DNA of 64,000 bases from an uncultured Candidatus Saccharibacteria bacterium. GTDB lineage: Bacteria > Patescibacteriota > Minisyncoccia > Phycocordibacterales > Zambryskibacteraceae. Below the pieces are notes generated by a model. That model worked only from the letters and a program-made list of their open reading frames with translations, had not been told where the DNA came from and did not search any database. The stretch is taken from assembly GCA_964642835.1 (NCBI GenBank), contig CAZXQA010000002.1, positions 11,875 to 75,874 on the forward strand. The letters run 5' to 3'. The position numbers and the translations under genes were made by a program. This document shows positions 8,821 through 39,003 of this stretch, piece by piece (the stretch's first letter is position 1; each line of letters begins with the position of its first letter).

Positions 8821-9591
8821 CTACCCTACCATACGGAGGGCATTCTCGACAAGGGCTTTCCGAAGCGCCTCAGGGTCCTCGCCCCGCACCTCCGCCAGCC
8901 GCTTGTAGACCTCCTGCACATAGGCTGGCTCGTTCCGCTCACCACGATACGGCTTTGGCGCGACATACGGAGCATCTGTCTCCGCGTGGATCATGCCGAT
9001 GGGAGCGTTTTTGATCACCTCATCGTACTCCGAGGCGAATGTAATGACACCTGTAAATGAGGTCGAGAAACCAAGAGCCCAGAAGCGCTTCGCCTCCTCA
9101 AGCGTCCCCGCGAAGAAGTGAATATTGCCGCGGAGTTTGTCACCGTGAGTAACCTTCAACTCTTCAAGAAGCGCGATCTGCTCGGGATACGCGGCGCGGG
9201 AGTGGATCATAAGCGGCTTGCTATGACGGATGGCGAACTCAACCTGCGCGAGGAAGAGTTCTCGCTGGCGTTCGAAATCCGCCATCTTATTACCATGGAA
9301 AAAGTCGAGACCGCACTCCCCGATCGCCACCGTCTTCGGGTGACGGGCCAAGGCTTCAAAGTCCTCGGGATCAAATTTCCTCAACGGATTGTCGACCGGG
9401 TGCACGCCGACGCAGGCATAGATTTCCGGATACATCTCCGAGAGTTCGACGGCCCGTTTCGACGTCTCCAAATCAGTTCCGACCACAATCGTATGCGTTC
9501 CTGTTTCGCGCAAACGCGCGATCACGGCCTCAAAGTCCGCCTCGTACCCAGGCAGGTTAAGGTGCGAATGAATATCAAAATATTTAGGCAT
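8821..9591 (-). CDS. tatD: TatD-family metal-dependent hydrolase / DNase
   Basis: FDIHSHLN start and HxH..E..H..D TIM-barrel hydrolase motifs typical of TatD. Confidence 0.88.
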   Translation of the reverse strand: MPKYFDIHSHLNLPGYEADFEAVIARLRETGTHTIVVGTDLETSKRAVELSEMYPEIYACVGVHPVDNPLRKFDPEDFEALARHPKTVAIGECGLDFFHGNKMADFERQRELFLAQVEFAIRHSKPLMIHSRAAYPEQIALLEELKVTHGDKLRGNIHFFAGTLEEAKRFWALGFSTSFTGVITFASEYDEVIKNAPIGMIHAETDAPYVAPKPYRGERNEPAYVQEVYKRLAEVRGEDPEALRKALVENALRMVG

Positions 9592-11002
9592 TGAGACGAG
9601 GGAACAGTGGTTGCTCAGGCTTCTGGTTCGCCTTAATAAGAGCCTTAATCTTTGCGGATGTCTCGGGCATGAAGGGGTTAATAAGTCGAGCGATGGAATA
9701 AAGCTCGAGCACGAGAGCCGAGATCACTGCCTGATCCTTTGTCTCCCACGGCTTACTGTCTTGAATCTTTTTGTCCAGGGACCAGATTCTCTTCCAGACA
9801 TACTCGAGAGCGTTCTTTACTTCATAGGCATTGAGGTAGGCAAAATATTCCGACATATCTTCTCTCTCGGGAACCGGTACCGGCGCGGAGAGGTTCGCCT
9901 GAGCCAACGTCATGATGCGAGAGGTAAGATTCCCCAGACCGTTCACGAGGTTCGAGGTGTAGGCAATATTAAAGCTCTCGATACTGACGTCGGTGTCTTC
10001 GAACTGGTTCACCCCCGCCATGAGCACGCGGAACACTTCCCGACCGAAACGCGTCACCATCTCATGCGGCGTAATAAAGTTGCCGAGACTCTTCGACATC
10101 TTTTGTCCGCCAACATTGAGGAAGCCGTGAATAACAATCTGCTTCGAAGGGGTGAGGCCAGCCGAGAGAAGCATCGCCTGCCACATGGCCGCCTGTTGGC
10201 GCACCTGGTCCTTGCCGGCAAATTGCACTACCGGCCACCACTTCTGGAAGTTCGCCGTGTTGTCGGGCCAACCGATGGTCGAGATGTAGTTGGTGAGCGC
10301 GTCGAACCAGACGTACATGACGTGCTCTTCATCATCCGGCACCGCGACACCCCAGGGCATCTTGGACTTCAAACGAGAGATGGAGAAATCTTCGAGTCCC
10401 CTCTCGACGAACTTAATAATTTCGTTAAAGCGGAAATCAGGAATAACGAACTCAGGATTTTCCCGATACAACTTCAAGAGAGGGTCCTGATACTTCGAGA
10501 ACCGGAAGAAATAATTTTCTTCCTCGCGGATCTCAAGATCTTTGTTCGGGTGGAGTGGGCAAACACCATCCACAAGCTCGGAATCCGTCTTCTCGAGTTC
10601 GCAGCCGTTACAATACTTGATCGTGTAATTCTTTTTATAAATATCCCCCGCTTCTTTGCAACGCTTCCACATTTCCTGCGCCGCCATCTTGTGATGCGAA
10701 TCAGTGGTGCGGATAAAGTGAACAATCTCTTCATCAATACCGAGGAGCGCAATGAGTTCCCGGAACTTCGCCGCGTACTCATCCGTATACGCCTGCGTAT
10801 CTTGTCCGGCTTCTTCGGCCTTAGTGTAAATCTTTACTCCATGCTCATCGGTGCCTGTGTTGAAGAAAACTTCTCTCCCCTGGAGCCTCATAGCCCTTGC
10901 CACAACATCGGCGTGAATAAGCTCCATGGCAAATCCGATATGTGGCTCCGCATTCACATAGGGTAACGTCGTCGTGATGTAGAAAGGTTTCTGCTCAGAC
11001 AT
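9584..11002 (-). CDS. metG: Methionyl-tRNA synthetase, minimal form without a C-terminal tRNA-binding domain
   Basis: LPYVNAEPHIGFAME (HIGH), KMSKSLGN, and a CxxC...CPLH zinc knuckle. Confidence 0.93.
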   Translation of the reverse strand: MSEQKPFYITTTLPYVNAEPHIGFAMELIHADVVARAMRLQGREVFFNTGTDEHGVKIYTKAEEAGQDTQAYTDEYAAKFRELIALLGIDEEIVHFIRTTDSHHKMAAQEMWKRCKEAGDIYKKNYTIKYCNGCELEKTDSELVDGVCPLHPNKDLEIREEENYFFRFSKYQDPLLKLYRENPEFVIPDFRFNEIIKFVERGLEDFSISRLKSKMPWGVAVPDDEEHVMYVWFDALTNYISTIGWPDNTANFQKWWPVVQFAGKDQVRQQAAMWQAMLLSAGLTPSKQIVIHGFLNVGGQKMSKSLGNFITPHEMVTRFGREVFRVLMAGVNQFEDTDVSIESFNIAYTSNLVNGLGNLTSRIMTLAQANLSAPVPVPEREDMSEYFAYLNAYEVKNALEYVWKRIWSLDKKIQDSKPWETKDQAVISALVLELYSIARLINPFMPETSAKIKALIKANQKPEQPLFPRLNA

Positions 11003-13404: not shown

Positions 13405-14622
13405 CTATCTTATGAGAGCGGCGAGGTCTGAGATATGAACGCGCTTCTGTTCCCCACTGTCGCGGTCGCGAAGGGTGACAGTATCTTTCTGCTCGGGGAT
13501 TTCTTCACCTAAGGTACCGAAGTCGATCGTAATGCAGAATGGCGTGCCGATCTCATCCTGACGGCGATAGCGCTTGCCAATATTGCCGTTGTCATCAAAC
13601 TCAATATTTGGAATTTCTTTTTTGAGCATTGCGTAAACCTCACGAGCCTTCTCAACGAGAGCGGGCTTATTCTTCAAAAGTGGAAAGACAGCTGCACGTA
13701 CGGGAGCCACATGTTTATGCAATTTCAAATACGCACGAGTCTCTCCTCCCAACTCATCTTCGGTATACGCGTCCGAAAGTACAGCCATGACGAGACGATC
13801 GACACCCATCGTCGGCTCAATGCAGTGCGGCACAAAACGCTCTTTGGTTTCCTCATCGTAATAAGAAAGGTCCGCGCCGCTCTTTTCGGAGTGGGCGTTA
13901 AGATCGTAATCCGTACGATACGCGATACCAAGAAGTTCCTTCTGGCCAAATGGGAAATCGAACTCCGTGTCGACACTGCGTTTGGAGTAGTGAGCTCGAT
14001 CTTCGGCAGGCACGTCGATTTTGTGAATCTTTTCTTTGGAAAGACCGATCTCATCCAAGAATTCCATCTGAGCGGCATGGAGTTCGTCAAAGATCTCATG
14101 AACTTTCTGTTCGTCACGAGGATCGACGAAGTATTCGAGTTCCATCTGCTCGAACTCGCGCTGACGAAAGATGAAGTCACGCGGAGAAATTTCGTTTCTA
14201 AACGACTTCCCAATCTGCGCGATACCGAACGGCAGCGTCGGGTGGAAAGAGTCGAGAATGTTTTTGAAATTGACGAACATGCCCTGCGCGGTCTCTGGTC
14301 GCAAGTGAGAAGTAGTGGCCTCTTCCCCGGTACCCACGCTCACCGCGAAGAGTTCGTTGCCGAAATTGCCAACATGACCAGAGGCCTCAAGGACGCGCGG
14401 ATTACTAATGATCGACGTACTCACCGGGTAAACATCTTCACGACCGGAGACGAATTTGTTCCAGAAGCGCTGCTTAATGTTATGCCTCAGCTCAACGCCT
14501 AAAGGACCGTAATCCCAGAAGCCGGCAATACCTCCATAGATCTCAGAGGACGGGAAAATAAACCCCCTTCTTTTGCAGAGGGATACGATCTTTTCCATCA
14601 GATTTTCCTTATTCTCAGCCAT
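13405..14622 (-). CDS. glyQS: Glycyl-tRNA synthetase, alpha2 (archaeal/eukaryote-like) type
   Basis: Class II aaRS motifs and full-length similarity to alpha2-type GlyRS (CKRRGFIFPSSEIYGG...). Confidence 0.9.
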   Translation of the reverse strand: MAENKENLMEKIVSLCKRRGFIFPSSEIYGGIAGFWDYGPLGVELRHNIKQRFWNKFVSGREDVYPVSTSIISNPRVLEASGHVGNFGNELFAVSVGTGEEATTSHLRPETAQGMFVNFKNILDSFHPTLPFGIAQIGKSFRNEISPRDFIFRQREFEQMELEYFVDPRDEQKVHEIFDELHAAQMEFLDEIGLSKEKIHKIDVPAEDRAHYSKRSVDTEFDFPFGQKELLGIAYRTDYDLNAHSEKSGADLSYYDEETKERFVPHCIEPTMGVDRLVMAVLSDAYTEDELGGETRAYLKLHKHVAPVRAAVFPLLKNKPALVEKAREVYAMLKKEIPNIEFDDNGNIGKRYRRQDEIGTPFCITIDFGTLGEEIPEQKDTVTLRDRDSGEQKRVHISDLAALIR

Positions 14623-16553: not shown

Positions 16554-17060
16554 TCATTCTCCGGCCAGCTGGCTCTGATGCAATCCCTCATTAATCGCTT
16601 TGACGAGATCTGTTTTCTCGAGAGTAAGATCCTTTTCCTTCAAATATCCCAAGTGGTAGAGCATCGTCGCGACAAAACGCGGCTCAAAAAGCTCATCCTC
16701 AATCTCTGCACTTGTGAGAAACACTTCCACCGCGTCAAAAAGTTCGGCGTGGACCGCCTCACCTTGCACGAGCCTCTCGAGCAAGACGAGTGGTCGCAGC
16801 AAAGCCGGTCTCGCCTTAACGCGAACGTGGGCCTGCGCTGAAGTGATGCGCCAATACTCTTTACCACGTACCAAGGACACGTTTGCAAAGGCCACCGGTT
16901 CCAAGGAGCCGCGTAATTTGGAAGTGCTCTTACGTACGCCTGTCGCGGTCGCTCGCACGAGTCCTAGATCACGAGTAAGGATGGAGTACACTCGGTCTGC
17001 CTCCCGTAGCGGACGCTCCGAGAGCACGAGACCCTTGGTGGTGTAGATGTGGTACGACAC
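16554..17060 (-). CDS. recO: DNA repair protein RecO, short form lacking a zinc-finger tail
   Basis: N-terminal OB-fold similarity to RecO (YTTKGLVLSERPLREADRVYSILTRDLGLVRATATGVRKSTSKLRGSLEP) and a C-terminal LYHLGYL helical region. Confidence 0.72.
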   Translation of the reverse strand: MSYHIYTTKGLVLSERPLREADRVYSILTRDLGLVRATATGVRKSTSKLRGSLEPVAFANVSLVRGKEYWRITSAQAHVRVKARPALLRPLVLLERLVQGEAVHAELFDAVEVFLTSAEIEDELFEPRFVATMLYHLGYLKEKDLTLEKTDLVKAINEGLHQSQLAGE

Positions 17061-20000
17061 TAGAAGTCGATATTGCCCGCTTTCTTGATTTCAAGAGCGT
17101 GAGCGGCAAAGAAGGCTTCTTCACCTGCCGGCACCGTGTACGCCGCCCTCTCTCCCGGTTTCAAGTTATTTGTTTTCCTCCATTCCTGAACCGAGCGGAT
17201 CACGTCACGCACCTTCCCCTCTTCGATGAGCGCAGGGGTGAGCGTCGTATCCAAGAACACCTCTTCCACAAGAGACGGATCGCTCACCACTTCCTTCACA
17301 TTGATCTCATCTTTAATGATGTCTTGGTATTCTGCGGCGAGCTGCAAACTCTTCACTGCCAGCTTTGCTAAAGGTTGGCGCACTTTGATATTGGCCTTAG
17401 AGCGTAGTTCCAAGGCGAGTGAGACGAGGCGGCGAGTTTCGGCCATGTGTTCGAGCACAACGGGTTTCTTTTCTGATGTGAAGCGAGCAAGGAGAGATTT
17501 CTTCTTTTCTGTCCACGTGGTGAGGTGCACACTCACAGGCTCATTGTCTTCTCTGACCTTTTGATATATTTCCTCGGCCATAAACGGCATAATCGGCGCC
17601 ATGATCTTCGAGAGCTCCTTGAAGACATATCGCGACGTCGCGAGAGCGTGCTGCTTGTCTTCTTTATCCTCTCCCTTAAACCTGTCACGAGAACGCCTGA
17701 CGTACCACGTCGATAGATCGGCCACGAAGTCCTTGATCGGCCGACTCGCACGCACGAGATCATACGCCTCGAGCGCCTCCGTCACTTCCTTCAATAATTC
17801 TTCCAAGCGAGCCAAGATCCAACGATCAAGCACACGCGGGCTCTTCTCGCCATTCGCAGGCGTGCCATCAGCGTAAAGCTCGTAGAAGGTGAAGGTGTTG
17901 GCGAGGATATTGAGCAGACGGTTATGAACGTCTTTCACCTCTTCGTCCTTAAACGACGCGTCCTCGGCCTGCATGACGACGGAAGACATGAGGTAGTAAC
18001 GGAAGGCGTCGGCCCCGATGGTGTCGAGAAGAATAAGTGGGTCGGTGTAGTTCCCTTTCGACTTACTCATCTTCGAACCATCCTTCGCCAAGATGTTACC
18101 GGTCGTGATGACGTTCGTGAATGCCGGTTTGTTGAAGAGCATAACCGCGACGACATGCATGTAGTAGAACCACGTGCGCGTCTGAGCGATATACTCCGCC
18201 ACAAAGTGGCCAGGGAAATGATGCTTGAACGCTTCCTCGTTCTCGAAGGGATAGTGGTATTCGGCAAAGGGCATGGACGCTGACTCCACCCAGCCGTCGA
18301 TCACTTCTGGAATACGCTTCAAGGGCTTACCCTCTTCTGTCACAAGCTCTACTTCGTCGATGTAAGGGCGATGAAGATCGAGTTCGAAGTGCTTGTTATG
18401 AGGCAAGGGCACGAACGATAATTCGCGAACCTCCGCATTCGTAAATTTCTTAAAGTCACCCACCTTAGGACTCTGATTTTCAGGACGATACCACTCTGAG
18501 TGCTCCGCGCCCATAGACTGCCCTAACCCGATCATGGTGAGCATCCATGCGGGAGTGCTATGAGTGCTGATAAGGATATTTTTGCCTTGGTATTTCTTTT
18601 CAAGATCGTAAAGGAATTCTCCTACGCGGCCACGAATGTCGGTCAATGATTCACCCTCCGGCACAGATGCCGTGAGAGGGTTTTCCTTCGTGTGTTCTGC
18701 TAAGCCGAGGTGATATTCCTTATAAGATTTGCCGTTGTAGATACCTGCGTTGATTTCTCCGATCCGAGAATCATATACAACAGCATCCTTTGGAAGTCCG
18801 AACACATCGGCCGCGATCTCTGCCGTTTCTTTAGCACGTACAAAATCTGAAGTAATAATTACGTCGATGTTATTCCCCGCAAGTTGAGCCGCCGCTTTTC
18901 TCACCTGCTCTTTCCCCACATCAGATAGGCGGTCATATTCATGACCTACGGTATTGGCAACAATCTCTTTTGCATTACTGAGACTTTCTCCATGTCTTAT
19001 AGCAAAATAGCGGTTCCCTGATTTCTTGGCATATTTCTTAAAGTCGTCGAGAGAGCCAACGACTGTCACCTTGCCGTTTTCGTCCTTCCAGATTGGCAGA
19101 GGCGCCGCCCAGTAGCGGTTACGGGAGATCGTCCAGTCCGGCGCGTTCTCGACAATGTTCAAGAAGCGGCCGTGCTTTAAGTGAGCCGGGAACCAGTTCA
19201 CCTCTTCATTGAGAGCAATCATGCGATCTTTCACCTTCTGAATATTGAGGAACCACGAAGAGATCGCGTTATAGAGAAGTGCCGTACCGCAGCGGTGACA
19301 ATGCGGATACGAGTGGGTATGCATCTCACGCTTATAGAGCAAGTGTCTTGTTTCCAGATCTTCCTTCACGAGCTTCTCCGCTTTTTTGAAGTATTGCGTG
19401 CGGATAAATTCCGGCGCAAGCGCGTTAAAGTGCCCCGCTCCGTCGAGCAGCTGAATCATCGGTAAATCGTTCTTCAATCCCAGAGCATAGTCGTCTTCAC
19501 CATAAATCACGGCGGTGTGCACGAGTCCCGTGCCGTCGGTAGTCGTCACGAAATCGGCTTCCGTTACGTACCAGCCCTTCTTCCCCGTTTCGCGAGCAGC
19601 CGGAATTTCATAGAGCGGCTCATATTCCATGCCGATCATCTCGCTTCCTTTGTGCTCGGCCACTACTTCATACGGCTCAGTAAGCACGGAGAGGCGCTCT
19701 TTAGCGAGAACGAGAATTTCCTTCCCTACTTTGGCCTCCACATAATCAATATCTCTCCCCACCGCGAGCGCCACGTTCCCCGGCAAGGTCCACGGCGTCG
19801 TTGTCCACGCGAGGAAGTAGGCATCCGGGAACGCTTTGATTTTAAATTTCACGTAGACCGACTCTTCGGTGACGTCGCGGTAACTGTTGTCCATCGCCAC
19901 TTCTGCCTTGGCGATTGGCGTCTGGCAGTGCGGACAATAGAGCAAAACTTTTTTACCCTCATAGAGAAGACCCTTCTCGTCCATCTTCTTCAAGGCATGC

Positions 20001-20485
20001 CAAACGCTCTCGATGTACGTGTTGTCCATCGTCTTGTAGGCGTTGTCGTACTCGACCCAGCGACCGACGCGGTCAACATATTTCTTCCACTCATGCGCGT
20101 ATCGCATGACAGAAGCGCGGCACGTTTCGTTAAAGGCTTCGATACCGATCTTGCCTTCGATCTCTGTCTTATCTTTAAGACCGAGCTCTTTCTCGATCAT
20201 GTTCTCGATTGGCAAGCCGTGGCAGTCCCAACCCCAGCGACGACGCACATGGTAGCCTTGCATCGTCTTGTAGCGAGGGATGACGTCTTTAATCACGGAG
20301 GAAAGGAGACTCCCGGCGTGAGGCAACCCCGTCGCGAATGGCGGCCCGTCATAGAAAGTGAATTCCCCTTTCGGCGCCTCTTTCTCGAGACTCTTTTCGA
20401 AAATGTGATTCTCCTGCCAGAACTTCAAAACCGCCTCTTCCTTAAGAGCGCGCTCGGACTTGGGATTGGTGTGGGTGGTATCCAT
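17060..20485 (-). CDS. ileS: Isoleucyl-tRNA synthetase, eukaryote-like type 2, with an in-frame histidine phosphatase (PGM-like) domain insertion
   Basis: FYDGPPFATGLPH...WGWDCHGLPIE, KMSKSKGN, and an editing domain. ATG at 20485 chosen; the ORF track's 20533 is a TTG in the leader. Residues about 507-715 contain an RHGES histidine-phosphatase fold. Confidence 0.9.
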   Translation of the reverse strand: MDTTHTNPKSERALKEEAVLKFWQENHIFEKSLEKEAPKGEFTFYDGPPFATGLPHAGSLLSSVIKDVIPRYKTMQGYHVRRRWGWDCHGLPIENMIEKELGLKDKTEIEGKIGIEAFNETCRASVMRYAHEWKKYVDRVGRWVEYDNAYKTMDNTYIESVWHALKKMDEKGLLYEGKKVLLYCPHCQTPIAKAEVAMDNSYRDVTEESVYVKFKIKAFPDAYFLAWTTTPWTLPGNVALAVGRDIDYVEAKVGKEILVLAKERLSVLTEPYEVVAEHKGSEMIGMEYEPLYEIPAARETGKKGWYVTEADFVTTTDGTGLVHTAVIYGEDDYALGLKNDLPMIQLLDGAGHFNALAPEFIRTQYFKKAEKLVKEDLETRHLLYKREMHTHSYPHCHRCGTALLYNAISSWFLNIQKVKDRMIALNEEVNWFPAHLKHGRFLNIVENAPDWTISRNRYWAAPLPIWKDENGKVTVVGSLDDFKKYAKKSGNRYFAIRHGESLSNAKEIVANTVGHEYDRLSDVGKEQVRKAAAQLAGNNIDVIITSDFVRAKETAEIAADVFGLPKDAVVYDSRIGEINAGIYNGKSYKEYHLGLAEHTKENPLTASVPEGESLTDIRGRVGEFLYDLEKKYQGKNILISTHSTPAWMLTMIGLGQSMGAEHSEWYRPENQSPKVGDFKKFTNAEVRELSFVPLPHNKHFELDLHRPYIDEVELVTEEGKPLKRIPEVIDGWVESASMPFAEYHYPFENEEAFKHHFPGHFVAEYIAQTRTWFYYMHVVAVMLFNKPAFTNVITTGNILAKDGSKMSKSKGNYTDPLILLDTIGADAFRYYLMSSVVMQAEDASFKDEEVKDVHNRLLNILANTFTFYELYADGTPANGEKSPRVLDRWILARLEELLKEVTEALEAYDLVRASRPIKDFVADLSTWYVRRSRDRFKGEDKEDKQHALATSRYVFKELSKIMAPIMPFMAEEIYQKVREDNEPVSVHLTTWTEKKKSLLARFTSEKKPVVLEHMAETRRLVSLALELRSKANIKVRQPLAKLAVKSLQLAAEYQDIIKDEINVKEVVSDPSLVEEVFLDTTLTPALIEEGKVRDVIRSVQEWRKTNNLKPGERAAYTVPAGEEAFFAAHALEIKKAGNIDF

Positions 20486-20722
20486 AGTGTGAAAAATAAA
20501 AACTCGTCGCTGAGCAGAAATAATTCTGCGCAAGGACGAGTTTTCACCCGTGGTACCACCTTGATTTTTACCCGCCTTTGGCGGGGCTTCTCATTCACAG
20601 CTATACCGGGCTTACCCGTCGGGTTCTACACAGCTTTCGCCTTTCTTCCCGAAGCTTGCCCGCCGCTCTTTCTGGCGGGCTTGGGAGTGATTAGTTCCCT
20701 TAACGCGTATGCACCCACTATA
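20486..20722 (-). promoter_or_regulatory. T-box riboswitch leader with intrinsic terminator upstream of ileS
   Basis: Minus-strand RNA contains AUCAAGGUGGUACCACGGG, matching the T-box consensus GGUGGNACCGCG. This is followed by a terminator hairpin (ACUCGUC...GACGAGU, forward 20501..20544) and a U-run. A hairpin resembling stem III (CCCGCC-aaa-GGCGGG) lies just 5' of the T-box. A candidate AUC(A) specifier is at 20689..20691. Confidence 0.75.
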
Positions 20723-22270
20723 TCACATTCGCTCAGGCGCCGGAATACCGAGCACCGTGAGGCCGTTTTTCATTACTTGTTTGAAGGCCTTGGTGACGGC
20801 GAGGTTATGCGCATCTTCTGCAATTCTCTCGTGTGCATAGAAGTTATTAAAGGCTGAGGCTAGTTCGGTGAGATAGGTCACGATGTAGTTCGGCGCGTAT
20901 TCTGCACCGGCGCGCTCAATGATTTCTGGGAATCGGTAAAGCAACTTTTCAATAAGTCGCACGTCTTCTTCCCCTCTCCTTACGTCTAGGAGAGGGGTTG
21001 GGGTGAGGTTTGATTTCTCAATCACTGAACAAGCGCGCGCATAGGCGTACTGGAGATACACCCCCGAGTCACCTTCGGTGGAAACCGATTTCTCGAAGTC
21101 GAAAATAATATCCTGCCCGATCCCTTGGCGAAGGATCATGTACTTCACCGCGGCAATGGCGACCCGCTCATCGCCCTTCACATGTTGCTTCACTTCCTCA
21201 ATGAGAGATTCCGCGGTAATGATATTCCCCGTGCGTGAGCTCATCTTCCCGGTCGGAAGGCGGAGCATGCCGTGCGGGAGGTGCTTGGTCTTTGTAGCGA
21301 GGTCTGGGTAAATCAAACCAAGTGCCGCGAGCATGACGCGGAAGTAATCCTTGATCTCATTCCCGGTTACTACTACTGAGAGATCGTACGGGTAGGTATC
21401 ATATTTGTTCTTCGCGTTCCCTAAGTCCTTCGCCTCATACGTTGGGATACCTTGGGAGTTGATGAAGACGCGAGTGTGAAGAGAGGGATCAACGTTCTCA
21501 CCCTTAAAGACGATGGCACCGTCTGACTCTTCGAAGACCTTCCCCACATTTTCTCTTACAATCTTCTCCCCGATCGGCGCCGTGTCAGATTCGAAGAAGT
21601 AATAATCGAAGTGGCTCCCGAGTCTCTTGTACATCTCTTCAAAGGCCGCGAGACTTACTTGCTTCCCTTTTTCATACACGGTATTTACCTCCGCGTCAGT
21701 GCCTGCGTAAATTGTTTTGTTAAGCGCTTCGATCTCTGCCTTGGCACTCAAGTCTTCCTCATAGGCCTTACTGCCCGCCGCGTAAGCTTCTTTCTCTGGC
21801 ACGCCTTTAAGCATCGCGTATACAGCCTTCGCCACATGCAGACCCTTGTCGCCTTGGTAGTTAGCCTGCTTCACCTCTGCCCCGTTCCACGCGATAATTC
21901 GCGCGATAGTTGAGCCGATAACGTTTGGCATCAGGTGACCGATATGAAATTCCTTAAATGGGTTAGGGTCGGTATGCTCGACCATGACCTTATATCCCTT
22001 CACGTGCGCACCCTTCCCGAACTCATCCCCCTTCTCGATAATCTCTTCCGCGCTATTTTTGAAAAATGTTTTCGAGAGATAGATATTGATAAACCGACCG
22101 CTCGCAAGTTCGAGCTTCTCGATTTCATCCACATGCGCTAGCTCGAGCTTCGCGAGGTCTTCTGCCGCCGTCTTCACGTCCGCGATAATCGTATAATCGC
22201 CATTCTTAATATCCTTGGGGTGCACCAAGGTGATCTTCCGACCTAAAATTGCTTCGAGTTTTTCTTTCAT
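20723..22270 (-). CDS. argS: Arginyl-tRNA synthetase
   Basis: HIGHLMPNVIGSTIARII HIGH region and full-length ArgRS similarity. Confidence 0.92.
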   Translation of the reverse strand: MKEKLEAILGRKITLVHPKDIKNGDYTIIADVKTAAEDLAKLELAHVDEIEKLELASGRFINIYLSKTFFKNSAEEIIEKGDEFGKGAHVKGYKVMVEHTDPNPFKEFHIGHLMPNVIGSTIARIIAWNGAEVKQANYQGDKGLHVAKAVYAMLKGVPEKEAYAAGSKAYEEDLSAKAEIEALNKTIYAGTDAEVNTVYEKGKQVSLAAFEEMYKRLGSHFDYYFFESDTAPIGEKIVRENVGKVFEESDGAIVFKGENVDPSLHTRVFINSQGIPTYEAKDLGNAKNKYDTYPYDLSVVVTGNEIKDYFRVMLAALGLIYPDLATKTKHLPHGMLRLPTGKMSSRTGNIITAESLIEEVKQHVKGDERVAIAAVKYMILRQGIGQDIIFDFEKSVSTEGDSGVYLQYAYARACSVIEKSNLTPTPLLDVRRGEEDVRLIEKLLYRFPEIIERAGAEYAPNYIVTYLTELASAFNNFYAHERIAEDAHNLAVTKAFKQVMKNGLTVLGIPAPERM

Positions 22271-23477: not shown

Positions 23478-23508
23478 CATAGATAAAAGCAAAGCCCCCG
23501 CGTACGTG
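23478..23508 (-). terminator. Rho-independent terminator downstream of rplK
   Basis: AAGCCCCCacgtacgcGGGGGCTT hairpin followed by a U-run on the minus strand. Confidence 0.7.
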
Positions 23509-23541
23509 GGGGCTTTGCGAATATAAAACGAGGGGGTGAAA

Positions 23542-23964
23542 TTACTTCACGTCGACACCCATGTTCCGAGCCGTACCAGCGATGATCTTTGCAGCAGCAT
23601 CGAGGTCATTTGCATTGAGGTCAGGCATCTTCTTCTCGGCAATTTCGCGAATCTTCGCCATCGAGAGCGAGCCGATCTTCGAGGTGTTCGGAGTACCGGA
23701 ACCCTTCTCCTTGCCCAAGGCCTTGAGGATAAGAGCGGAAGCCGGTTCGACCTTGTAGGTCATCTTATAGGTGCGGTCTTCGTAGACTTCGACCACGGTC
23801 GGCACGGTCTCGCCGCGACGATCCTTGGTCTCGTCGTTAAAGCGCTTTACGAACTCACCGATGTTAATGCCGGCAGAACCGAGCACAGGACCCAGCTGTT
23901 GACCCGGCACTGCCGCGCCGCCAGGGACCTGAAGCTTCAAGATTTTGGTAACTTTCTTAGCCAT
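23542..23964 (-). CDS. rplK: 50S ribosomal protein L11
   Basis: Full-length L11 similarity (KLQVPGGAAVPGQQLGPVLGSAGINIGEFVKRFN). Confidence 0.95.
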   Translation of the reverse strand: MAKKVTKILKLQVPGGAAVPGQQLGPVLGSAGINIGEFVKRFNDETKDRRGETVPTVVEVYEDRTYKMTYKVEPASALILKALGKEKGSGTPNTSKIGSLSMAKIREIAEKKMPDLNANDLDAAAKIIAGTARNMGVDVK

Positions 23965-26281: not shown

Positions 26282-26803
26282 ATGCTCCCCCATTCATTCT
26301 TCGAAGACAAGACCCTCCAGGTAGCCAGGAAGCTTCTCGGCAAAACCCTCACGCGCCGTCTGGACGGGAAGCATATCCGTATGACGATTACCGAGACGGA
26401 AGCCTACGTGGGGCCTAAAGATTTGGCCTGCCACACCTCACACGGACGCACCAAGCGCAACGACCCCATGTACGGCCCGGCTGGTACGATCTACGTCTAC
26501 TTCACCTACGGCATGCACTGGATGCTCAACATTGTGACCGAGGGTGGCAAGGGCACGGCGATTCTTATCCGCGCCACCGAAGACGTGAAGGGTCCTGCCC
26601 GTCTGACAAAGGCCCTGCGAATCGACAAAAATCTAAATGGGAAAATGTTGGGTAAGAAATCTGGATTGTGGGTTGAAGAGAATCCCCACTCCAAGCGGCA
26701 AGCTAAAGGCTACAAACTCATCCGCACTCCGCGCATCGGCGTTACATATGCAAAGGAAGGTTGGGCCGAGAAGCCGTACCGGTTTGTGTTGAAAGAGAAA
26801 TAA
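26282..26803 (+). CDS. mpg: DNA-3-methyladenine glycosylase (Mpg/AAG family)
   Basis: MLPHSFFEDKTLQVARKLLGK...ETEAYVGPKDLACHTSHGRTKRN...GTIYVYFTYGMHWMLN match Mpg over the full length. The true start at 26282 lies inside the longer ORF 25937..26803. Confidence 0.88.
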   Translation: MLPHSFFEDKTLQVARKLLGKTLTRRLDGKHIRMTITETEAYVGPKDLACHTSHGRTKRNDPMYGPAGTIYVYFTYGMHWMLNIVTEGGKGTAILIRATEDVKGPARLTKALRIDKNLNGKMLGKKSGLWVEENPHSKRQAKGYKLIRTPRIGVTYAKEGWAEKPYRFVLKEK

Positions 26804-26805
26804 AA

Positions 26806-26836
26806 AAAGGCCGTCGCTTTGTGCAACGGCCCGAAT
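26806..26836 (-). terminator. Rho-independent terminator, minus-strand orientation
   Basis: GGCCGTtgcacaaagcgACGGCC hairpin followed by TTTTTTT on the minus strand. It is about 260 nt downstream of the rarA stop. Confidence 0.65.
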
Positions 26837-27095
26837 TGGGGGGGGGAAATTTGTCAGAGCGGCTCACGTTTCGCTCTCAAGCCTTTTGGCTACCCTCAAA
26901 AGAATGGGTGCAGATGGTTCCTTTTGGATCCCTGCACTGAATAAATTGTACGAGTGTGAGCCACCCGCCAACCCAAGAGGAATTCCACCTCTTGTAAACT
27001 CATGAGAGGACCATACATGGCCACTTCAGGGAGGTTCCCTGCTCACGAATATCTACACTGATACTAGCATACTCCGTTGCTATTGTCAAGGGACA

Positions 27096-30420: not shown

Positions 30421-32163
30421 CTACGATCTCTCTCCAATCTGCTGCCTCCACATCGCGTAGTAAAGGCCCTTCTTCTCGAGGAGTTCCTCGTGGGCTCCCA
30501 TTTCCGCCACCTCTCCTTTCTCCAAGACGTAGATCCGATCGGCGTGCATGATCGTCGAGAGACGGTGCGCGATGAGAACGGTAATGTGCGCGTGAAGCGT
30601 CGAGATATCGCGGACGGTCTTCCCTATTTCCGCTTCGGTAATGGAGTCGAGCGCGCTCGTCGCTTCGTCAAAGATAAGGATGTTCGGCTTGCGAAGCAGG
30701 GCGCGCGCGATCGAGAGACGCTGCTTCTCCCCACCAGAAACTTTCACTCCTCCCTCCCCGATCACGGTATCAAGCCCCTTACCACCACGCTCCAAGAGAC
30801 TCTGGCACTGTGCCTTGTTGAGCGCGTCGAGGCACTCGCTGTCGGTCGCGGCAGAGTTAACGAAGAGAAGGTTCTCACGAATTGTTCCGGAGAAGAGCTG
30901 AGTATCCTGCGTCACAAAGCCGATCTGAGAACGAAGCTCTTCTTTGTCGATCTCCGTGTACGGCATGCCGTTGTAGAGAATCGTGCCTCCTGTCGGCTCA
31001 TAGAGTCCGACGAGGAGCTTCACGAGCGAGGTCTTCCCAGAGCCAGACGGACCAACAAAGGCGATCGTCTCGCCGCGAGAAGCTTCGTACGAGATCCCAG
31101 AGAGAGCCTGAGTGGTGGCCGAGCGATAGCCGAAGGAGACATCTTTGAACGCGAGCGTCGTTACGGGCCCAAGCGTCTGTGGCGCCACGGCCTTCGGCTC
31201 AGCCGGAGTGTTCATGAGCTTCGAGTAGTTCGCGAGCGAGGCTTCGGCCTGGCGGTAAGTGCCAATGAAGCTTGTGATCTGCGACATCGGGAAGAAAAGC
31301 CAGAAGGAGTAAATGTTGAGTGAAAGATACTGACCGAAGGTAATCCGCTCGGTAAAGATGAGGTAGAAGAGGAAGAAGTAGAGACCGGCTCGGATAAAGT
31401 TTGTGACCGTTCCCTGCACGAAGTCGAGCATGCGCAGATATCTCAGCTTCTTCAACTCAAGCGCCAAGATCTTCTCCGTCACGGCGTTCAAACGATCCAC
31501 TTCCTGTGTCGCAAGACCAAGCGCCTTCACAAGCTCAATATTCCGCAAGGATTCCGTCGTCGCGCCGGCCAAGGCCGTTGTCTCGGCCACGATGGTCTGC
31601 TGGATAACCTTAATCTTTCTCGAGAAGACGAGCGTGATGGTGCTCACGATCGTGATCATGGCGATAAAGATAAGCGGGATCACCCAATACACCGATGCGG
31701 CATAGACCAAGACAAAGGCGAGAATAATAACCGACATGAACACGACGTTGATCGTGTCCGAGATAAGCTTCTCGGTATCCTGGCGAGCCTTCTGCAATTT
31801 CCCAAGCGTCTCCCCGCTCCGCTCATCCTCGAAGGTGGCGTACGGCAAGTCGAGTGAGTGGCGAACACCCTCGCGGTACATATCGGCGCCGGAGCGCTGG
31901 CTTACCGTGTTGAGGAAATAATCCTGGAAGTTCTTGGCAATGCGAGACACGAAGGCGTTGCCAATGAAGAGGAGGAGTAAGAGTCCGGTCCCTCGGAAAA
32001 ACGTGGCGCGAGAAATCTCGTGGAAGCGGAGCGCGTACTCGTCAATGACGCGCTGGAAGATGATTGGCTCGAGAAGCGAGAATACGTTGTTCACCGCCGC
32101 CAATACCAAGACTAAAGCACACAGCTTCCAATATTTCTTGAGATAGGTAAATAAAATTTTCAT
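30421..32163 (-). CDS. ABC exporter, fused permease/ATPase (MsbA-like)
   Basis: Six-TM domain, GPSGSGKTS Walker A, LSGGEKQRLSIARAL signature, and Walker B ILIFDEATSALD. Confidence 0.9.
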   Translation of the reverse strand: MKILFTYLKKYWKLCALVLVLAAVNNVFSLLEPIIFQRVIDEYALRFHEISRATFFRGTGLLLLLFIGNAFVSRIAKNFQDYFLNTVSQRSGADMYREGVRHSLDLPYATFEDERSGETLGKLQKARQDTEKLISDTINVVFMSVIILAFVLVYAASVYWVIPLIFIAMITIVSTITLVFSRKIKVIQQTIVAETTALAGATTESLRNIELVKALGLATQEVDRLNAVTEKILALELKKLRYLRMLDFVQGTVTNFIRAGLYFFLFYLIFTERITFGQYLSLNIYSFWLFFPMSQITSFIGTYRQAEASLANYSKLMNTPAEPKAVAPQTLGPVTTLAFKDVSFGYRSATTQALSGISYEASRGETIAFVGPSGSGKTSLVKLLVGLYEPTGGTILYNGMPYTEIDKEELRSQIGFVTQDTQLFSGTIRENLLFVNSAATDSECLDALNKAQCQSLLERGGKGLDTVIGEGGVKVSGGEKQRLSIARALLRKPNILIFDEATSALDSITEAEIGKTVRDISTLHAHITVLIAHRLSTIMHADRIYVLEKGEVAEMGAHEELLEKKGLYYAMWRQQIGERS

Positions 32164-32190
32164 AAGAAAATCTACTATACTACAAACCCT

Positions 32191-32589
32191 TTAGACGAGT
32201 TCACCGCAGTAGGCGCAGCGCTTGGCCTCACGCGGAATCTCCGAGAGACACTCAGGGCACTTCTTGGTAGCAGGGTCAGCCGGCGCCTCTTTATGCGAAC
32301 GGGCGATAAGAAGATTCATCGGTTTAATCACGAAGAAAAAGACCGTGCCCGTGACGAGGAGGAAGGAGATGAGCGCGTTCAAGAAGTGACCGTAGAGGAA
32401 TTCACTTCCGTTCAGGCTGAAGGTAAGCGCGCTGAAGTCAGGAAGCTTGGCAACCGCCGAGATAAACGGGGTGAGAATGTCTGAGACAAGAGCGGTAACA
32501 ACGGTACCGAAAGCCGCTCCCACCATGACACCCACCGCGAGATCTACCACGTTCCCCCGGAGGAGAAATTGTTTGAATTCTTTAAGCAT
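32191..32589 (-). CDS. mscL: Large-conductance mechanosensitive channel MscL with a C-terminal CxxC...CxxC zinc-ribbon tail
   Basis: LKEFKQFLLRGNVVDLAVGVMVGAAF matches the MscL N-terminus. The C-terminal CPECLSEI...CAYCG is unusual. Confidence 0.85.
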   Translation of the reverse strand: MLKEFKQFLLRGNVVDLAVGVMVGAAFGTVVTALVSDILTPFISAVAKLPDFSALTFSLNGSEFLYGHFLNALISFLLVTGTVFFFVIKPMNLLIARSHKEAPADPATKKCPECLSEIPREAKRCAYCGELV

Positions 32590-32635
32590 ACGACTATGGT
32601 ACACCAAATAAACGCAGGAGGAGGCAACATGCGTC

Positions 32636-33097
32636 CTAGATCGAAGGCGTGAGCTTCGCCTTGGCGAAGCCGACCGAGAAGGCGCGGCACCAAATCCACA
32701 CTTCGTTGTAGTCGAGGAGATTCACTCCCGCGGGCACTTCGTAGTTCTGGGAACCGAGGTTGCCCTTTAGTTTCCCCACTTCCGTCCCCTTCGCATACGC
32801 ACCATCCTTCCCTAACCCCACATAGAGATCCGGGCCGTTGGCAACGGCGAAGTTGTCTTCCAGCCGAATAATATATTTCTCTCCCACTTGAATAACGCTC
32901 ACGTTACCAGAACCCGTGTGAACTGCATCGAACCCTGTAAACAATCCTCGAAGCGCGAGCACGGGCTGCACTCCCTCTGACTCAGCGGTGAGATTAAATT
33001 CTTCAGAAACGCGCTTATCGATAAAGAGCGGCGAAATCGTCCAGTAACCGAACCCGAGAGCTAGAATGACAACGACTCCGATGATAAGTTTTTTCAT
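32636..33097 (-). CDS. DM13-domain secreted protein
   Basis: N-terminal TM/signal and DM13-like core (HTGSGNVSVIQVGEKYIIRLEDNFAVANGPDLYVGLGKD). Confidence 0.65.
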   Translation of the reverse strand: MKKLIIGVVVILALGFGYWTISPLFIDKRVSEEFNLTAESEGVQPVLALRGLFTGFDAVHTGSGNVSVIQVGEKYIIRLEDNFAVANGPDLYVGLGKDGAYAKGTEVGKLKGNLGSQNYEVPAGVNLLDYNEVWIWCRAFSVGFAKAKLTPSI

Positions 33098-33130
33098 AAG
33101 TAGAAAATTAATCTAGATGGCTTCTCAAAT

Positions 33131-33168
33131 GTATACCTAGAAGGGGTTAAAGAGAAGCCGGATTTTAT
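33131..33168 (-). repeat. Cassette repeat R0, truncated terminal copy (T-module 3' part only)
   Basis: gtatacctagaaggggttaaagagaagccggattttat matches the distal part of R1-R6. It marks the distal end of the array. Confidence 0.7.
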
Positions 33169-33177
33169 AAAACTTGC

Positions 33178-33699
33178 CTACTTAGCTAAATCCAACACGT
33201 TTGCCAAAACGCTCTCAATATCTTGATTCGCATCCACCACCAATGCACCCTGCTCCACCAAGCTTCTTTCTATCTTCTCTTTTCTTTCAAGAATATAGTC
33301 CTGAACTTCTGGAGATTTACCGAACCCATTATCGGTTCGAGCAAGTAATCTGCTGCGGACATTCTCTGGGCTCGCAACTAACAAAATTACTTTGCTAAAC
33401 AATGAGACTATTTCTTCTAAGTTATTCGGAGCTCCACAATAGAAAACTAATTCATTCTCCTGATTAGCAATAATCTCTTTGAGCTTATCCTTTTTATACA
33501 GCCAATACATCTTCTGGATTTTCTCCAGATCATTGTTGTTGTCATAGGGTGTAGGAAGTCCTGTCTTTTTATCCACCATGACACACAAATCTTCCACTCC
33601 ATCCATATCACGAGTTTCGTAACCTAAAGCTTTGAGTCTGCGGCTTACTTCGGACTTACCTGAGCCGCTAACTCCTGCAATAAGAATTGATTGCTTCAT
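33178..33699 (-). CDS. Cassette gene 1: P-loop NTPase / nucleoside-nucleotide kinase-like
   Basis: GVSGSGKS Walker A near the N-terminus; small kinase fold. Confidence 0.7.
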   Translation of the reverse strand: MKQSILIAGVSGSGKSEVSRRLKALGYETRDMDGVEDLCVMVDKKTGLPTPYDNNNDLEKIQKMYWLYKKDKLKEIIANQENELVFYCGAPNNLEEIVSLFSKVILLVASPENVRSRLLARTDNGFGKSPEVQDYILERKEKIERSLVEQGALVVDANQDIESVLANVLDLAK

Positions 33700-33806
33700 G
33701 CAGAAACTATACCAGAATAAGAATCGTTGGGGCCAGAGTAGGAAAATTATTCTGAGGGTGTTTTCAGATAGAGTATACCTGGAAGGGGTTAAAGAGAAGC
33801 TGGATT
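33700..33806 (-). repeat. Cassette repeat R1 (P-module + T-module)
   Basis: ataccagaataag...ttggggccagagtaggaaaattattctg...gtatacctggaaggggttaaagagaagctggatttta; the upstream gene's TAA stop is embedded in the repeat. Confidence 0.85.
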
Positions 33807-34361
33807 TTATCTCATCATTTCAACTAATCCCTCTAAACAAGGAGGTAACTGTGTCCATCCACTAGACCCGTTAAGATGCCTGCCATTTGGCACAAGAACC
33901 AACTCACCCCCCAATTCCCTTGAAAGGGTTCCGGCGTTAGACACTGGAACATTTGGATCATTGTCTCCGTGGATAATCAGAAACTTACCGCATTTTGTCT
34001 TAGCTTTTTGATAATCAAAAGGAGTTTCAAGGAACGTATCAATCTTCCTATTGTTATTCTTCTCACTGGGACCGGACACAAGCACAACCCCAGCGATATT
34101 CCTTGATTCTTCGGACTCCAAATAACGCAGAATTGCTGGGACACCCAAGCTGTGTCCTACGAGATAGATCTCATCTTCCGTATTCATATCTGCCACTCTT
34201 CTGATTTCATTTACCCAATCATTGCAAATAGGTTGAGATGGGTTGGGCATTGGTAAGGCACAAGCATAGACATCGTGCTTCTCAAGCTCTCCCATCAACC
34301 AAGGTCTCCATCCACCATTTGGGCTTCCTTCAAATCCGTGAATTATAAAAACTTTTTTCAT
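33807..34361 (-). CDS. Cassette gene 2: YdeN/RBBP9-like serine alpha/beta hydrolase
   Basis: GHSLG nucleophile elbow and IHGDNDPNVP, in an alpha/beta hydrolase of about 185 aa. Confidence 0.7.
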   Translation of the reverse strand: MKKVFIIHGFEGSPNGGWRPWLMGELEKHDVYACALPMPNPSQPICNDWVNEIRRVADMNTEDEIYLVGHSLGVPAILRYLESEESRNIAGVVLVSGPSEKNNNRKIDTFLETPFDYQKAKTKCGKFLIIHGDNDPNVPVSNAGTLSRELGGELVLVPNGRHLNGSSGWTQLPPCLEGLVEMMR

Positions 34362-34454
34362 TTCAATACTTTAATAATACCTTTAATTGCTTCGAGTTTA
34401 TTGTCTGGATTCTTAAACCGCCAAAGATACTCTTCCAAATGAGCTGCGACACTC

Positions 34455-34613
34455 GGCTTATCCTTATATGGTAACGACTATACCAGAATAAGCCACTCAC
34501 CTACCCCTTCAAGAACCTTATTCTGAACTGGGGCCAGAACAGGAAAATTATTCTGGAGGTGTTTTCGGATAGGGTTTATTTGGAGAGTCTGAGGGAAAAG
34601 CTCGATTTTATAG
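34455..34613 (-). repeat. Cassette repeat R2
   Basis: Same P and T modules. The P-module has an extra inverted copy (cagaataag...cttattctg). An 80-nt stretch with a start-less 38-codon ORF lies between the P-module and the gene 2 ATG. Confidence 0.85.
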
Positions 34614-35255
34614 CTAAAGCAGCTCCTTAAGTTCAATAAGATTATTCACTTTCTTCCACGCAACCTTTTCCAACTCAACCGCCTCAAACTCCGTTCTTAC
34701 AGCAACACCATTGCTGGTGAGACTAAACAGACCAATATCGTTAGAGCTGTCCCCCACTGGCACACATTCATTTATATTGAGCCCGTGTTTTTCTCTAAAC
34801 TGATTGAATAATTCAATCTTCTTCTCCTTATCACCAGTTACGGTTATAACGTCAGTCAAATTATCTTTTTCATCCCAGACCAATGTCGATATTGCATACC
34901 AATCTGGTATACCAAGCTCTTCTCCTACAAGTTGAGCGTAAAGATCGAAGGAGCCGGTAATCATACAAAGTTTATATCCTTTTTCTTTTAGGTAAGAGAT
35001 TATTTCCTTTGCATCCTCCCTGATGGGAATCTCTTTAAGAATCTTTGTTATATCTTTTTTATTCGCCTTGCCTTCCTTAGACCAGTTTTCAAGACAAAGT
35101 TTATTAGATTCTTGAAGAGTCAACTCTCCCCTTTTCCATCTACCATAAATTTCATCATGGACTTCTATGGATCCGCCTAATCCCAAAGTAAACCTATTCC
35201 AAGAAATATCCCGAGTAAGAGTCCCGTCTATATCAAAAACTACAGCTTTAAACAT
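34614..35255 (-). CDS. Cassette gene 3: HAD-superfamily hydrolase (phosphoserine-phosphatase-like)
   Basis: N-terminal DIDGTL motif I and other HAD motifs (GDSSNDIG). Confidence 0.8.
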   Translation of the reverse strand: MFKAVVFDIDGTLTRDISWNRFTLGLGGSIEVHDEIYGRWKRGELTLQESNKLCLENWSKEGKANKKDITKILKEIPIREDAKEIISYLKEKGYKLCMITGSFDLYAQLVGEELGIPDWYAISTLVWDEKDNLTDVITVTGDKEKKIELFNQFREKHGLNINECVPVGDSSNDIGLFSLTSNGVAVRTEFEAVELEKVAWKKVNNLIELKELL

Positions 35256-35510
35256 ATTAAAACTATACCAGAATAAGAATCGTTGGGGCGACTATCGGGA
35301 TTCGGTCACGGATAATTTCTTGCTAGAAATTTCCGCTACCCCCCGCTCGGCCCGTCGGCCTCCGCACTTCGAATCCCGTAGACGTGAATAGAAAAAGCCG
35401 CCACACGGGCGGGCCTTTTCTATTCATGGGCCAGAGTAGGAAAACTATTCTGGATGTCTTCTCAGATAGAGTATACCTTGAGGGTGTCAAAGAGAAGCTG
35501 GATTTTATTG
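35256..35510 (-). repeat. Cassette repeat R3 with a 142-nt insert (35289..35430)
   Basis: The insert begins with a tRNA-His 3'-end-like cgactatcggg. It shares a 55-nt GC-rich segment with the tRNA-Val scar. It carries a bidirectional terminator hairpin at 35386..35425. Confidence 0.85.
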
Positions 35511-36389: not shown

Positions 36390-36700
36390 ATTAAAACTAT
36401 ACCAGAATAAGCATCCTTCCCTACCCCTTCGAAAACCTTATTCTGAATTGGGGCGACTAGAGAGACGCTACGCTATCGAACTCCTCGGAAACCCACGGTT
36501 TTCCGAATCCTTCCTCCACGGGGAACTCCCGTTCCCCGACCCCCTCCCCGTTCGATTCTCTCCAGGGCCGGAGTGAAAATAAAAAGACCCACGCGAGGCG
36601 GATCTTTTTATTTTCATGGGCCAGAGTAGGAAAATTATTCTGGAGGTGTTTTCGGATAGAGTGTACCTAGAAGGGGTTAAAGAAAAGCTGGATTTTATCT
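36390..36700 (-). repeat. Cassette repeat R4 with a 167-nt insert (36454..36620)
   Basis: The insert begins cgactagagag... This is a degenerate copy of the tRNA-His variable loop, T-arm and acceptor on the same strand as tRNA-His. It also has an AAAATAAAAAGA...TCTTTTTATTTT terminator hairpin at 36575..36615. Confidence 0.85.
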
Positions 36701-37231: not shown

Positions 37232-37388
37232 TACTCAAACTATATCAGAATAAGCATCCTTCTTTACCCCTTCGAGAACCTTATTCTGAATTGGGGCCAG
37301 AGTAGGAAAATTATTCTGGAAGTATTCTCAGATAGAGTATACCTGGAGGGGGTTAAAGAAAAGCTGGATTTTATTGCTAACTTCCCAA
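37232..37388 (-). repeat. Cassette repeat R5
   Basis: Same organisation as R4 but without the insert. Confidence 0.85.
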
Positions 37389-37949: not shown

Positions 37950-38095
37950 ACGTTAAGTATAAGTCAGAATAAGAACCTATTCCTACTCCTTCAGATAAAT
38001 TATTCGTTGGGCCAGAGTAGGAAAATTATTCTGGAGGTGTTTAGTGATAGGGTTTATTTGGAGAGCGTGGCGGAAAAACTCGATTTTATAGGTAA
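37950..38095 (-). repeat. Cassette repeat R6
   Basis: Same P and T modules. Confidence 0.85.
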
Positions 38096-38716: not shown

Positions 38717-38750
38717 ATAAAAAGCATACCAGTCAGAATAAGAAACACTA
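38717..38750 (-). repeat. Cassette repeat R7 (P-module only) joining gene 7 to tRNA-His
   Basis: cagtcagaataagaaacacta immediately 3' of tRNA-His, in the same position the P-module takes next to the tRNA-His remnants in R3/R4. Confidence 0.7.
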
Positions 38751-38980: not shown

Positions 38981-39003
38981 TTGGGGAAACTTTAACGTAA
39001 AAC

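Follow-up and report, generated by a model that had tools for sequence, protein, structure and literature searches.

Outside the Firmicutes, ileS is the aminoacyl-tRNA synthetase (aaRS) gene most often regulated by a T-box, and ileS T-boxes acting on translation were reportedly described in Actinobacteria by Sherwood et al. in 2015. In the Actinobacterial ileS T-boxes the codon-anticodon duplex is clamped, which substitutes for the missing tRNA-elbow platform, and the accepted translational class is defined by a Stem I described as ultrashort, whose specifier is 'mounted in an apical loop', and by the lack of the interdigitated T-loop elbow platform (PMC7583486; the class II ileS examples are those of Mycobacterium tuberculosis, M. 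smegmatis and Nocardia farcinica, Protein Data Bank entries 6UFG and 6UFM as cited there). Translational ileS T-boxes of this kind are said to be 'mostly identified in Actinobacteria', the short-Stem-I search of TBDB covered only Actinobacteria reference genomes and sequences already found by its class I model (PMC7778990), and published lists of phyla with T-boxes comprise Firmicutes, Actinobacteria, Chloroflexi, Deinococcus-Thermus and a few Proteobacteria. Here we analyse a 64,000-nt stretch of contig CAZXQA010000002.1 (assembly GCA_964642835.1), which we refer to as the window and to which all coordinates refer unless a locus is named, and in which the 237-nt spacer between argS and ileS (20486-20722, minus strand coding, between the argS stop codon TGA at 20725-20723 and the ileS ATG at 20485-20483) encodes, with a probability that we put at roughly 0.8, a T-box riboswitch that senses tRNA-Ile and controls ileS, most likely by transcription attenuation.

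The window leader agrees with the Actinobacterial class II ileS T-boxes in the gene regulated, in having a very short Stem I that has no elbow platform and shows AUC and a following purine in its apical loop, in the purine string of the Stem II S-turn, in a Stem IIA/B pseudoknot with an F-box, and in possessing Stem III and a UGGN bulge. It differs in its output, which is a hairpin and U-tract with no Shine-Dalgarno (SD) sequence in the 3' arm where class II has an SD sequestrator, and in its host, which belongs to the Candidate Phyla Radiation (CPR). Several CPR members of the group described below also lack Stem IIA/B and Stem III, considered important in M. tuberculosis ileS (PMC11297988). 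With canonical class I T-boxes (RF00230; for example B. subtilis tyrS and Firmicute ileS) the leader shares the T-box sequence, a terminator and antiterminator that compete for one strand, Stem II, Stem IIA/B, Stem III and the F-box, and its relatives also share the GA motif, resembling a K-turn, in the basal part of Stem I. The long Stem I of class I is missing however, along with the specifier internal loop, the AG bulge and the distal loop of interdigitated T-loops. The glyQS T-box, a minimal class I element with neither Stem II nor Stem IIA/B, is likewise a naturally reduced transcriptional T-box, but glyQS keeps the long Stem I and elbow contact and drops Stem II, whereas the CPR leaders do the reverse. 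A full-text literature search found no paper describing a T-box in CPR, Patescibacteria, Parcubacteria or Saccharibacteria, which is not proof of priority.

Read on the minus strand, to which all features below belong, nucleotides 20712-20492 fold as a full T-box leader of the form we term complete (182 nt to the end of the antiterminator), which folds better than 200 of 200 shuffles (z = -5.3). The basal helix of Stem I (20652-20708) pairs ACGC (20708-20705) with GCUU (20655-20652), with one C-U mismatch, and encloses two hairpins. Read by eye, the Stem I base of many CPR relatives has a K-turn-like GA motif (AAGC-NNN-GA ... GA-GCUU), in which both GA dinucleotides are AA in the window. The first enclosed hairpin is the 17-nt Stem I specifier hairpin GGGA-ACUAAUCAC-UCCC (20683-20699), which exposes AUC at 20691-20689 followed by the purine A at 20688. 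AUC is the isoleucine (Ile) codon decoded by tRNA-Ile(GAU), and this codon and a purine stand at the 3' end of the hairpin loop in every one of the 21 related leaders, as a specifier would (the purine is A in 20 and G in one). The hairpin has a stem of 4–7 bp and a loop of 5–10 nt across these leaders and its stems covary, with GGGA/UCCC, GGGG/CCCC, GGAG/CUCC, CUGAA/UUCAG, CCCG/CGGG, CCUG/CAGG and CUCG/CGAG among the variants found.

The second enclosed hairpin, GCCCGCC-AGAAAGAGC-GGCGGGC (20658-20680, hairpin 2), follows the specifier hairpin and precedes the 3' strand of the basal helix. It is missing from the leaders at loci L202 and L210 (handles of the form L202 are our own), and L036, L041, L020 and L071 have unrelated hairpins in its place; we therefore treat it as a tolerated, optional insertion. 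A role as a substitute elbow-binding element was rejected as unsupported, its sequence not being conserved among leaders with a hairpin there, and its being a dispersed repeat was rejected as well, CCCGCC...GGCGGG occurring only three times in the window, twice within the leader. The two copies in the leader are hairpin 2 (20659-20679) and Stem III (20571-20585), and as their stem sequences (CCCGCC/GGCGGG) are identical, a swap of partners over 90 nt is possible. The third copy (55784-55798) lies just 3' of the end of an open reading frame (ORF) and resembles a terminator stem; three matches compare with 0.02 expected.

Downstream of Stem I the window carries the elements that follow Stem I in the Rfam T-box model, which aligns Stem II, Stem IIA with the F-box, Stem III and the antiterminator at high posterior probability. 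Stem II (20620-20651) has a CGGG/CCCG base, the purine strand AAGAAA, a distal hairpin GGC-GAAA-GCU and GUAGAA in the S-turn region, and falls on the Stem II of the model (GAA...AGUA); AAGAA and UAGA are invariant in alignment A1 and UAGA is kept in alignment A2. The Stem IIA region (20599-20618) consists of CGG/CCG with the loop GUAAGC, then the F-box-like CCGGUAUAG, which is aligned to CGguuauuucCGUUA of the model, and then GCU, which could pair with AGC of the loop as a Stem IIB pseudoknot, as is hinted by the pair at 170-183 (A-U in seven sequences, G-C in two). A purine-rich linker, GUGAAUGAGAAG (20598-20587), precedes Stem III (20571-20585), CCCGCC-AAA-GGCGGG, which both the Rfam alignment and its folding as a hairpin identify. 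Other hairpins take the place of Stem III in L033, L088, L136 and L007, and none is found in L202, L210, L029, L031 and L041.

The T-box core, AUCAAGGUGGUACCACGGG, lies at 20565-20547 and forms part of an antiterminator (20532-20562) in which helix A1 (AAGG/CCUU) and helix A2 (ACGGG/CUCGU) flank the 7-nt bulge UGGUACC (20558-20552). Bacterial tRNA-Ile carries the discriminator base A73; UGGU of the bulge is complementary to the tRNA 3'-ACCA end, i.e. to A73, and UGGUACC is invariant in 21 leaders. On its own the antiterminator is worth -7.7 kcal/mol. It overlaps an intrinsic terminator (20492-20548) made up of a long hairpin, in which ACUCGUC (20541-20535) pairs with GACGAGU (20509-20503), and the U-tract UUUUUAUUUUU (20502-20492). 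The 5' arm of the terminator, CUCGUCCUUG, is the 3' strand of the antiterminator, so that one strand serves both structures, and the terminator (-28.8 kcal/mol; z = -7.1, a stability reached by none of 200 shuffles) lies 21 kcal/mol below its competitor. Every sequence feature named in the original prediction is thus present on the minus strand (the T-box core, both hairpins, the U-tract and AUCA), and its readings of AUCA as Ile specifier plus purine, of the CCCGCC/GGCGGG hairpin as resembling Stem III and of the 3' end as a terminator/antiterminator arrangement all hold; the single departure from the core consensus that it pointed out (ACCACGG for ACCGCGG) keeps its pair, as A-U. Its placing of the end of the terminator 16 nt before the ATG needs correcting, as the stem ends 17 nt and the U-tract 6 nt upstream of the ileS ATG. 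Hairpin-plus-U-tract terminators are used elsewhere in this genome, with a strong intergenic pair at 23489-23518 and 26808-26832 (both minus strand), to which we attribute weak Rfam matches to 'rnk_pseudo' (23483-23560) and 'suhB' (26794-26864).

A candidate extended -10 promoter, TGaTATAGT (20717-20725), shares nucleotides with the argS stop codon, and a leader transcribed from it would begin a few nucleotides ahead of the first helix; the placing of a promoter here follows from this extended -10 element and is accordingly tentative. A TATAAT-like hexamer stands 5–20 nt ahead of the first helix in most related leaders. As argS has no terminator of its own ahead of the ileS leader, argS read-through transcripts would fall under the same control.

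From the leader elements, their covariation, the invariant codon and the terminator/antiterminator overlap we infer tRNA binding, switching and termination, which would proceed as follows. The leader RNA would start near the -10 element over the argS stop codon, or arrive by read-through from argS, and the short Stem I hairpin would present AUC and the purine in its apical loop. Uncharged tRNA-Ile(GAU) would then pair its free 3'-ACCA with UGGU of the T-box bulge, which would stabilise the weak antiterminator and let RNA polymerase read into ileS. Charged tRNA would leave the antiterminator unstabilised, its 3' strand would be captured by the stronger terminator, and transcription would stop at the U-tract just before the start codon. 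That the leader is a T-box riboswitch with Ile specificity we regard as almost certain, and transcription termination (attenuation) is probably its main output.

The comparative evidence comes from ileS loci gathered via isoleucyl-tRNA synthetase (IleRS) protein homologues (contig search and exact-protein look-ups) and from a core-pattern scan of metagenomes. The same type of leader stands ahead of ileS in 20 other Patescibacteria contigs, a positive outcome for the suggested check on whether related genomes conserve the same elements. Besides the window, the Paceibacteria-type leaders are L001, L202/L203, L210, L007, L029/L032, L031, L033, L036, L041, L088 and L136, all with the core AAGGUGGUACCACG. 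A covariance model, R1, built from 11 Paceibacteria-type leaders scores the window at 106 bits (the leader has ~55% GC) and recovers ten Magasanikbacteria-type ileS leaders outside its seed (L015, L022, L026, L025, L020, L021, L027, L073, L071 and L014), whose cores are mostly AAGAUGGUACC or GAGAUGGUACC. It gave no match at E<=1 on three Actinomycetota leaders (L055-L057).

Covariation was counted on a model-guided alignment of 20 leaders (A3), nine of which are not R1 seeds; this alignment was used since MAFFT alone misaligned the variable stems. In total, 92.2% of the pair cells were standard pairs, compared to 70.8% in column shuffles (0 of 500 shuffles reached 92.2%), and both partners had changed in 25 of 27 modelled pairs. 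When the 3' partners were slid by 1–3 columns, pairing fell to 26–54%. By element, the Stem I basal helix was paired in 91% of cells (three of its four pairs changed on both sides), the two Stem II helices in 96% and 83% (both-sided changes in every pair), Stem IIA in 92%, and antiterminator helices A1 and A2 in 97.5% and 100%, with compensatory changes present. RNAalifold without a supplied structure recovered Stem I, both parts of Stem II and helices A1 and A2, with 18 of 20 predicted pairs compensatory. The output half is equally recurrent: a terminator with a U-tract in the same arrangement is present in 12 of 12 Paceibacteria-type leaders, at -16 to -32 kcal/mol in the 11 scored and by eye in L136.

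In the window itself Rfam RF00230 matches 20529-20672 at 38.2 bits (E = 3.9e-7 on a 401-nt region; E = 6.3e-5 when the full window is scanned with all 4227 families), and this is the only T-box in the window by both Rfam and R1. The T-box identity that had been proposed is therefore borne out by a significant E-value and by the covariation of Stem I, Stem II and the antiterminator across 20 ileS leaders, whilst the Rfam scan suggested as a check upheld it in part: the match is significant, but its score lies below the curated threshold and the leader is not a canonical class I T-box. The low score results from the absence of the distal Stem I that binds the tRNA elbow, 91 model positions being replaced by 7 nt. 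Among 14 relatives, six score 36–49 bits with the Rfam model and eight are undetected at E<0.05, so annotation based on Rfam would miss all 14.

Several observations weigh against a tRNA-Ile-sensing attenuator. The score of 38.2 bits is far below the Rfam gathering score of 93, and a default Rfam scan of the window at the gathering threshold returned tRNAs only and no T-box. The T-box field ties a short Stem I to control of translation; reviews hold that transcriptional T-boxes generally depend on the distal Stem I platform for sufficiently rapid tRNA capture, and describe the combination of a short Stem I with a terminator as disfavoured (PMC7583486). Neither the window nor the 42 loci searched contain a tRNA-Ile gene with which the cognate anticodon and discriminator could be checked. 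A simple terminator scan of 20300-20900 did not flag the minus-strand terminator, as the long stem has internal mismatches, and its only call was Stem III on the wrong strand; a consensus promoter scan of the same region found no sigma-70-type -35/-10 pair. Numerous relatives that are just as close and share the argS-ileS synteny have only 5–80 nt between the two genes and no leader, implying that the element is dispensable. Finally, the fitting of alignment A3 to the model raises the pairing figures to some extent and favours the structure; the slid controls and the nine non-seed leaders argue that the covariation signal is real.

The alternative that survives best is a T-box that acts on translation, or at both levels, with the hairpin 6–17 nt from the ATG blocking ribosome loading. 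The decoding half of the leader does match the translational class in its short Stem I, apical specifier and reliance on Stem II together with Stem IIA/B (PMC7583486; PMC11297988), and the distance between the end of the U-tract and the ATG is 0–6 nt for the window, L202, L210 and L036. In the window the spacer between the U-tract and the AUG (CACACU) has no SD sequence and none is found in the hairpin; with no SD visible, a landing zone free of structure may matter for the ribosome. In L041 the 3' arm of the hairpin even holds AGGAGG right before the AUG. The 3' arm in the window (GACGAGU) has no SD to sequester however, and the U-tract that follows the hairpin in all 12 Paceibacteria-type leaders is something that a sequestrator does not need; the Actinomycetota ileS leaders L055-L057 by comparison have an obvious GGAGGAG and no U-tract. 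We estimate the distance from the terminator to the downstream ATG at 193 nt in L007, 124 nt in L031, ~55 nt in L136, ~28 nt in L088, 19 nt in L029 and 13 nt in L033, distances at which it cannot act as an SD sequestrator. We therefore consider a chiefly translational switch unlikely and attenuation the better reading, with an extra effect on ribosome loading possible in the window.

It is more improbable still that the leader is a decaying relic, in which the hairpin and U-tract merely terminate argS or insulate the two genes and the T-box elements no longer sense tRNA. The patchy distribution, with close syntenic relatives that have short spacers instead, is what decay might produce, as are the mismatched basal helix of the window and the AA/AA in place of GA/GA in the K-turn-like motif, and argS has no other terminator. 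Yet every functional element is intact in the window, compensatory changes among relatives indicate purifying selection on the structure, neither AUC nor UGGUACC varies across two CPR classes, and L001 keeps the switch despite a 26-nt insertion capping helix A2. Chance resemblance, i.e. a structured, GC-rich spacer in which GGUGGUACC occurs by accident, is effectively refuted: the 12-nt core GGTGGNACCNCG was rejected as stand-alone evidence, being present in 11 of 100 window shuffles, and the score is under the Rfam gathering threshold, but Rfam (E = 6e-5 over the window) and R1 (106 bits) both recognise the leader, which is conserved in front of the ileS orthologues of 20 further contigs, where it covaries and its cognate codon never changes.

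Distribution and size vary widely within the group. Twelve contigs with close IleRS homologues were examined, and the leader was found only in L202/L203 and L210, with short spacers in the others. L202 (73% IleRS identity, same argS-ileS synteny) has an identical specifier hairpin yet lacks hairpin 2, Stem IIA/B and Stem III, and measures 118 nt from its first helix to the end of the antiterminator; L031 measures 115 nt. Stem IIA/B and Stem III are absent from L202, L029, L031 and L041, and in L210 Stem II has shrunk to GGG-loop-CCC. The metagenome scan with the pattern AAGGTGGTACCACG...CGTCCTT returned 120 loci, nearly all of them Firmicute long-Stem-I T-boxes of varied specificity, and among these loci only L088 and L136 belong to the CPR short-Stem-I class.

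Whether Patescibacteria carry a widespread T-box class of their own, in which the decoding module is class II-like and the intrinsic terminator class I-like, with members down to ~115 nt, is a proposition that we hold to be evenly balanced. The ~115-nt members would keep only the Stem I hairpin, the Stem II S-turn and the discriminator helix. If these forms work, they would be among the smallest natural T-boxes, and co-transcriptional tRNA sensing would need neither the elbow platform nor Stem IIA/B nor Stem III, which makes them a candidate minimal tRNA-sensing module for structural work and engineering. The pairing of a short Stem I with a terminator would likewise be a natural test case for the kinetic argument on the elbow platform and challenges a textbook generalisation. 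If they work, the ileS T-box would also have to be of greater age or mobility than its assumed distribution in Firmicutes, Actinobacteria, Chloroflexi and Deinococcus suggests, which would fit placements of CPR within Terrabacteria. CPR/Patescibacteria are a very large, mostly uncultured group with tiny genomes, and to judge from its sequence the leader points to regulation of ileS in them by a tRNA-sensing riboswitch. Pipelines that use the Rfam threshold miss such leaders, which reach 36–49 bits against 93 or do not match at all. Presence and absence of the leader at identical argS-ileS synteny also make this a clean setting in which to follow how a riboswitch is gained and lost.

Individual loci showed further variation. 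In the nearest relative, L001 (IleRS 98% identical over the N-terminal 450 residues and 85% over the whole protein; contig cut), a 26-nt hairpin is inserted in the apical loop of antiterminator helix A2 (L001:56-111), and the leader is otherwise near-identical to that of the window. The Magasanikbacteria-type leaders (L015, L025, L021, L073, L071 and similar, e.g. L015:1202-1400) have the core AAGAUGGUACC, often with an insertion in helix A2, and their platform is a small GGCACG...CGUGUU hairpin with a U-tract right after helix A1, which does not fully overlap the antiterminator; only 2–3 bp could be shared between terminator and antiterminator, if helix A1 were extended. In L022 (362-1448) and L021 (460-1400) the T-box lies ~800–950 nt upstream of ileS, and in L022 an ORF of 307 aa (525-1448) stands between the two, so the leader may control a two-gene operon there. 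L211 has a 665-nt GC-rich argS-ileS spacer (L211:36-700) with no called gene, T-box or Rfam match at E<0.1, which may be a structured RNA or a degraded gene. In L106 (1757-1915, minus strand) a T-box with AAGGUGGUACCACG stands upstream of an archaeal-type proS (TIGR00408, E 3e-165); its short hairpin GCGG-UUUCCCG-CCGU exposes CCC-G (Pro) and no U-tract precedes the ATG. The apical CCC-G suggests that apical-loop specifiers may exist for other aaRS genes in uncultured bacteria.

The regulated gene, ileS (17060-20485, ATG at 20485), encodes an IleRS with a His_Phos_1 domain inserted at residues 495-657, and the co-directional upstream gene is argS (20723-22270; DALR_1 and tRNA-synt_1d are annotated on the syntenic gene in L201/L202). 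The best IleRS homologues (55–85% identity) come from metagenome-assembled genomes (MAGs) of Zambryskibacteria, Kaiserbacteria, Nomurabacteria, Paceibacterota, Minisyncoccia and the 'Parcubacteria group', all CPR groups, which bears out the description of the genome as CPR-like in the original prediction. The accompanying remark that no other aaRS gene in the window has room for a leader fits too, the genes for methionyl-tRNA synthetase (9584-11002) and a class II synthetase (13405-14622) abutting upstream ORFs.

The His_Phos_1 insertion is common to all of the best IleRS homologues. In the window it is a histidine phosphatase domain (PF00300, E 2.2e-28; 18515-19003, minus strand) with the RHG motif 'FAIRHGES', where it separates the class I catalytic domain into its two halves, and the same five-domain pattern with His_Phos_1 is precomputed for 120 of 120 homologues listed, all apparently Patescibacteria. 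Several of the MAG records (L014, L018, L021-L023, L026, L041 and others) are titled 'uncultured Gammaproteobacteria' or 'Candidatus Saccharibacteria', titles which look like mislabels from automated pipelines; the IleRS proteins of these records are 58–64% identical to the CPR enzyme of the window (45% in L041). Elsewhere in the window, GC content is 0.44–0.45 across 32001-40000 compared to 0.51–0.55 in the remainder, which may mark an island or simply a region rich in RNA genes; a tRNA gene cluster (38751-41307; His, Leu, Arg, Leu, Val and Ser) adjoins this low-GC stretch.

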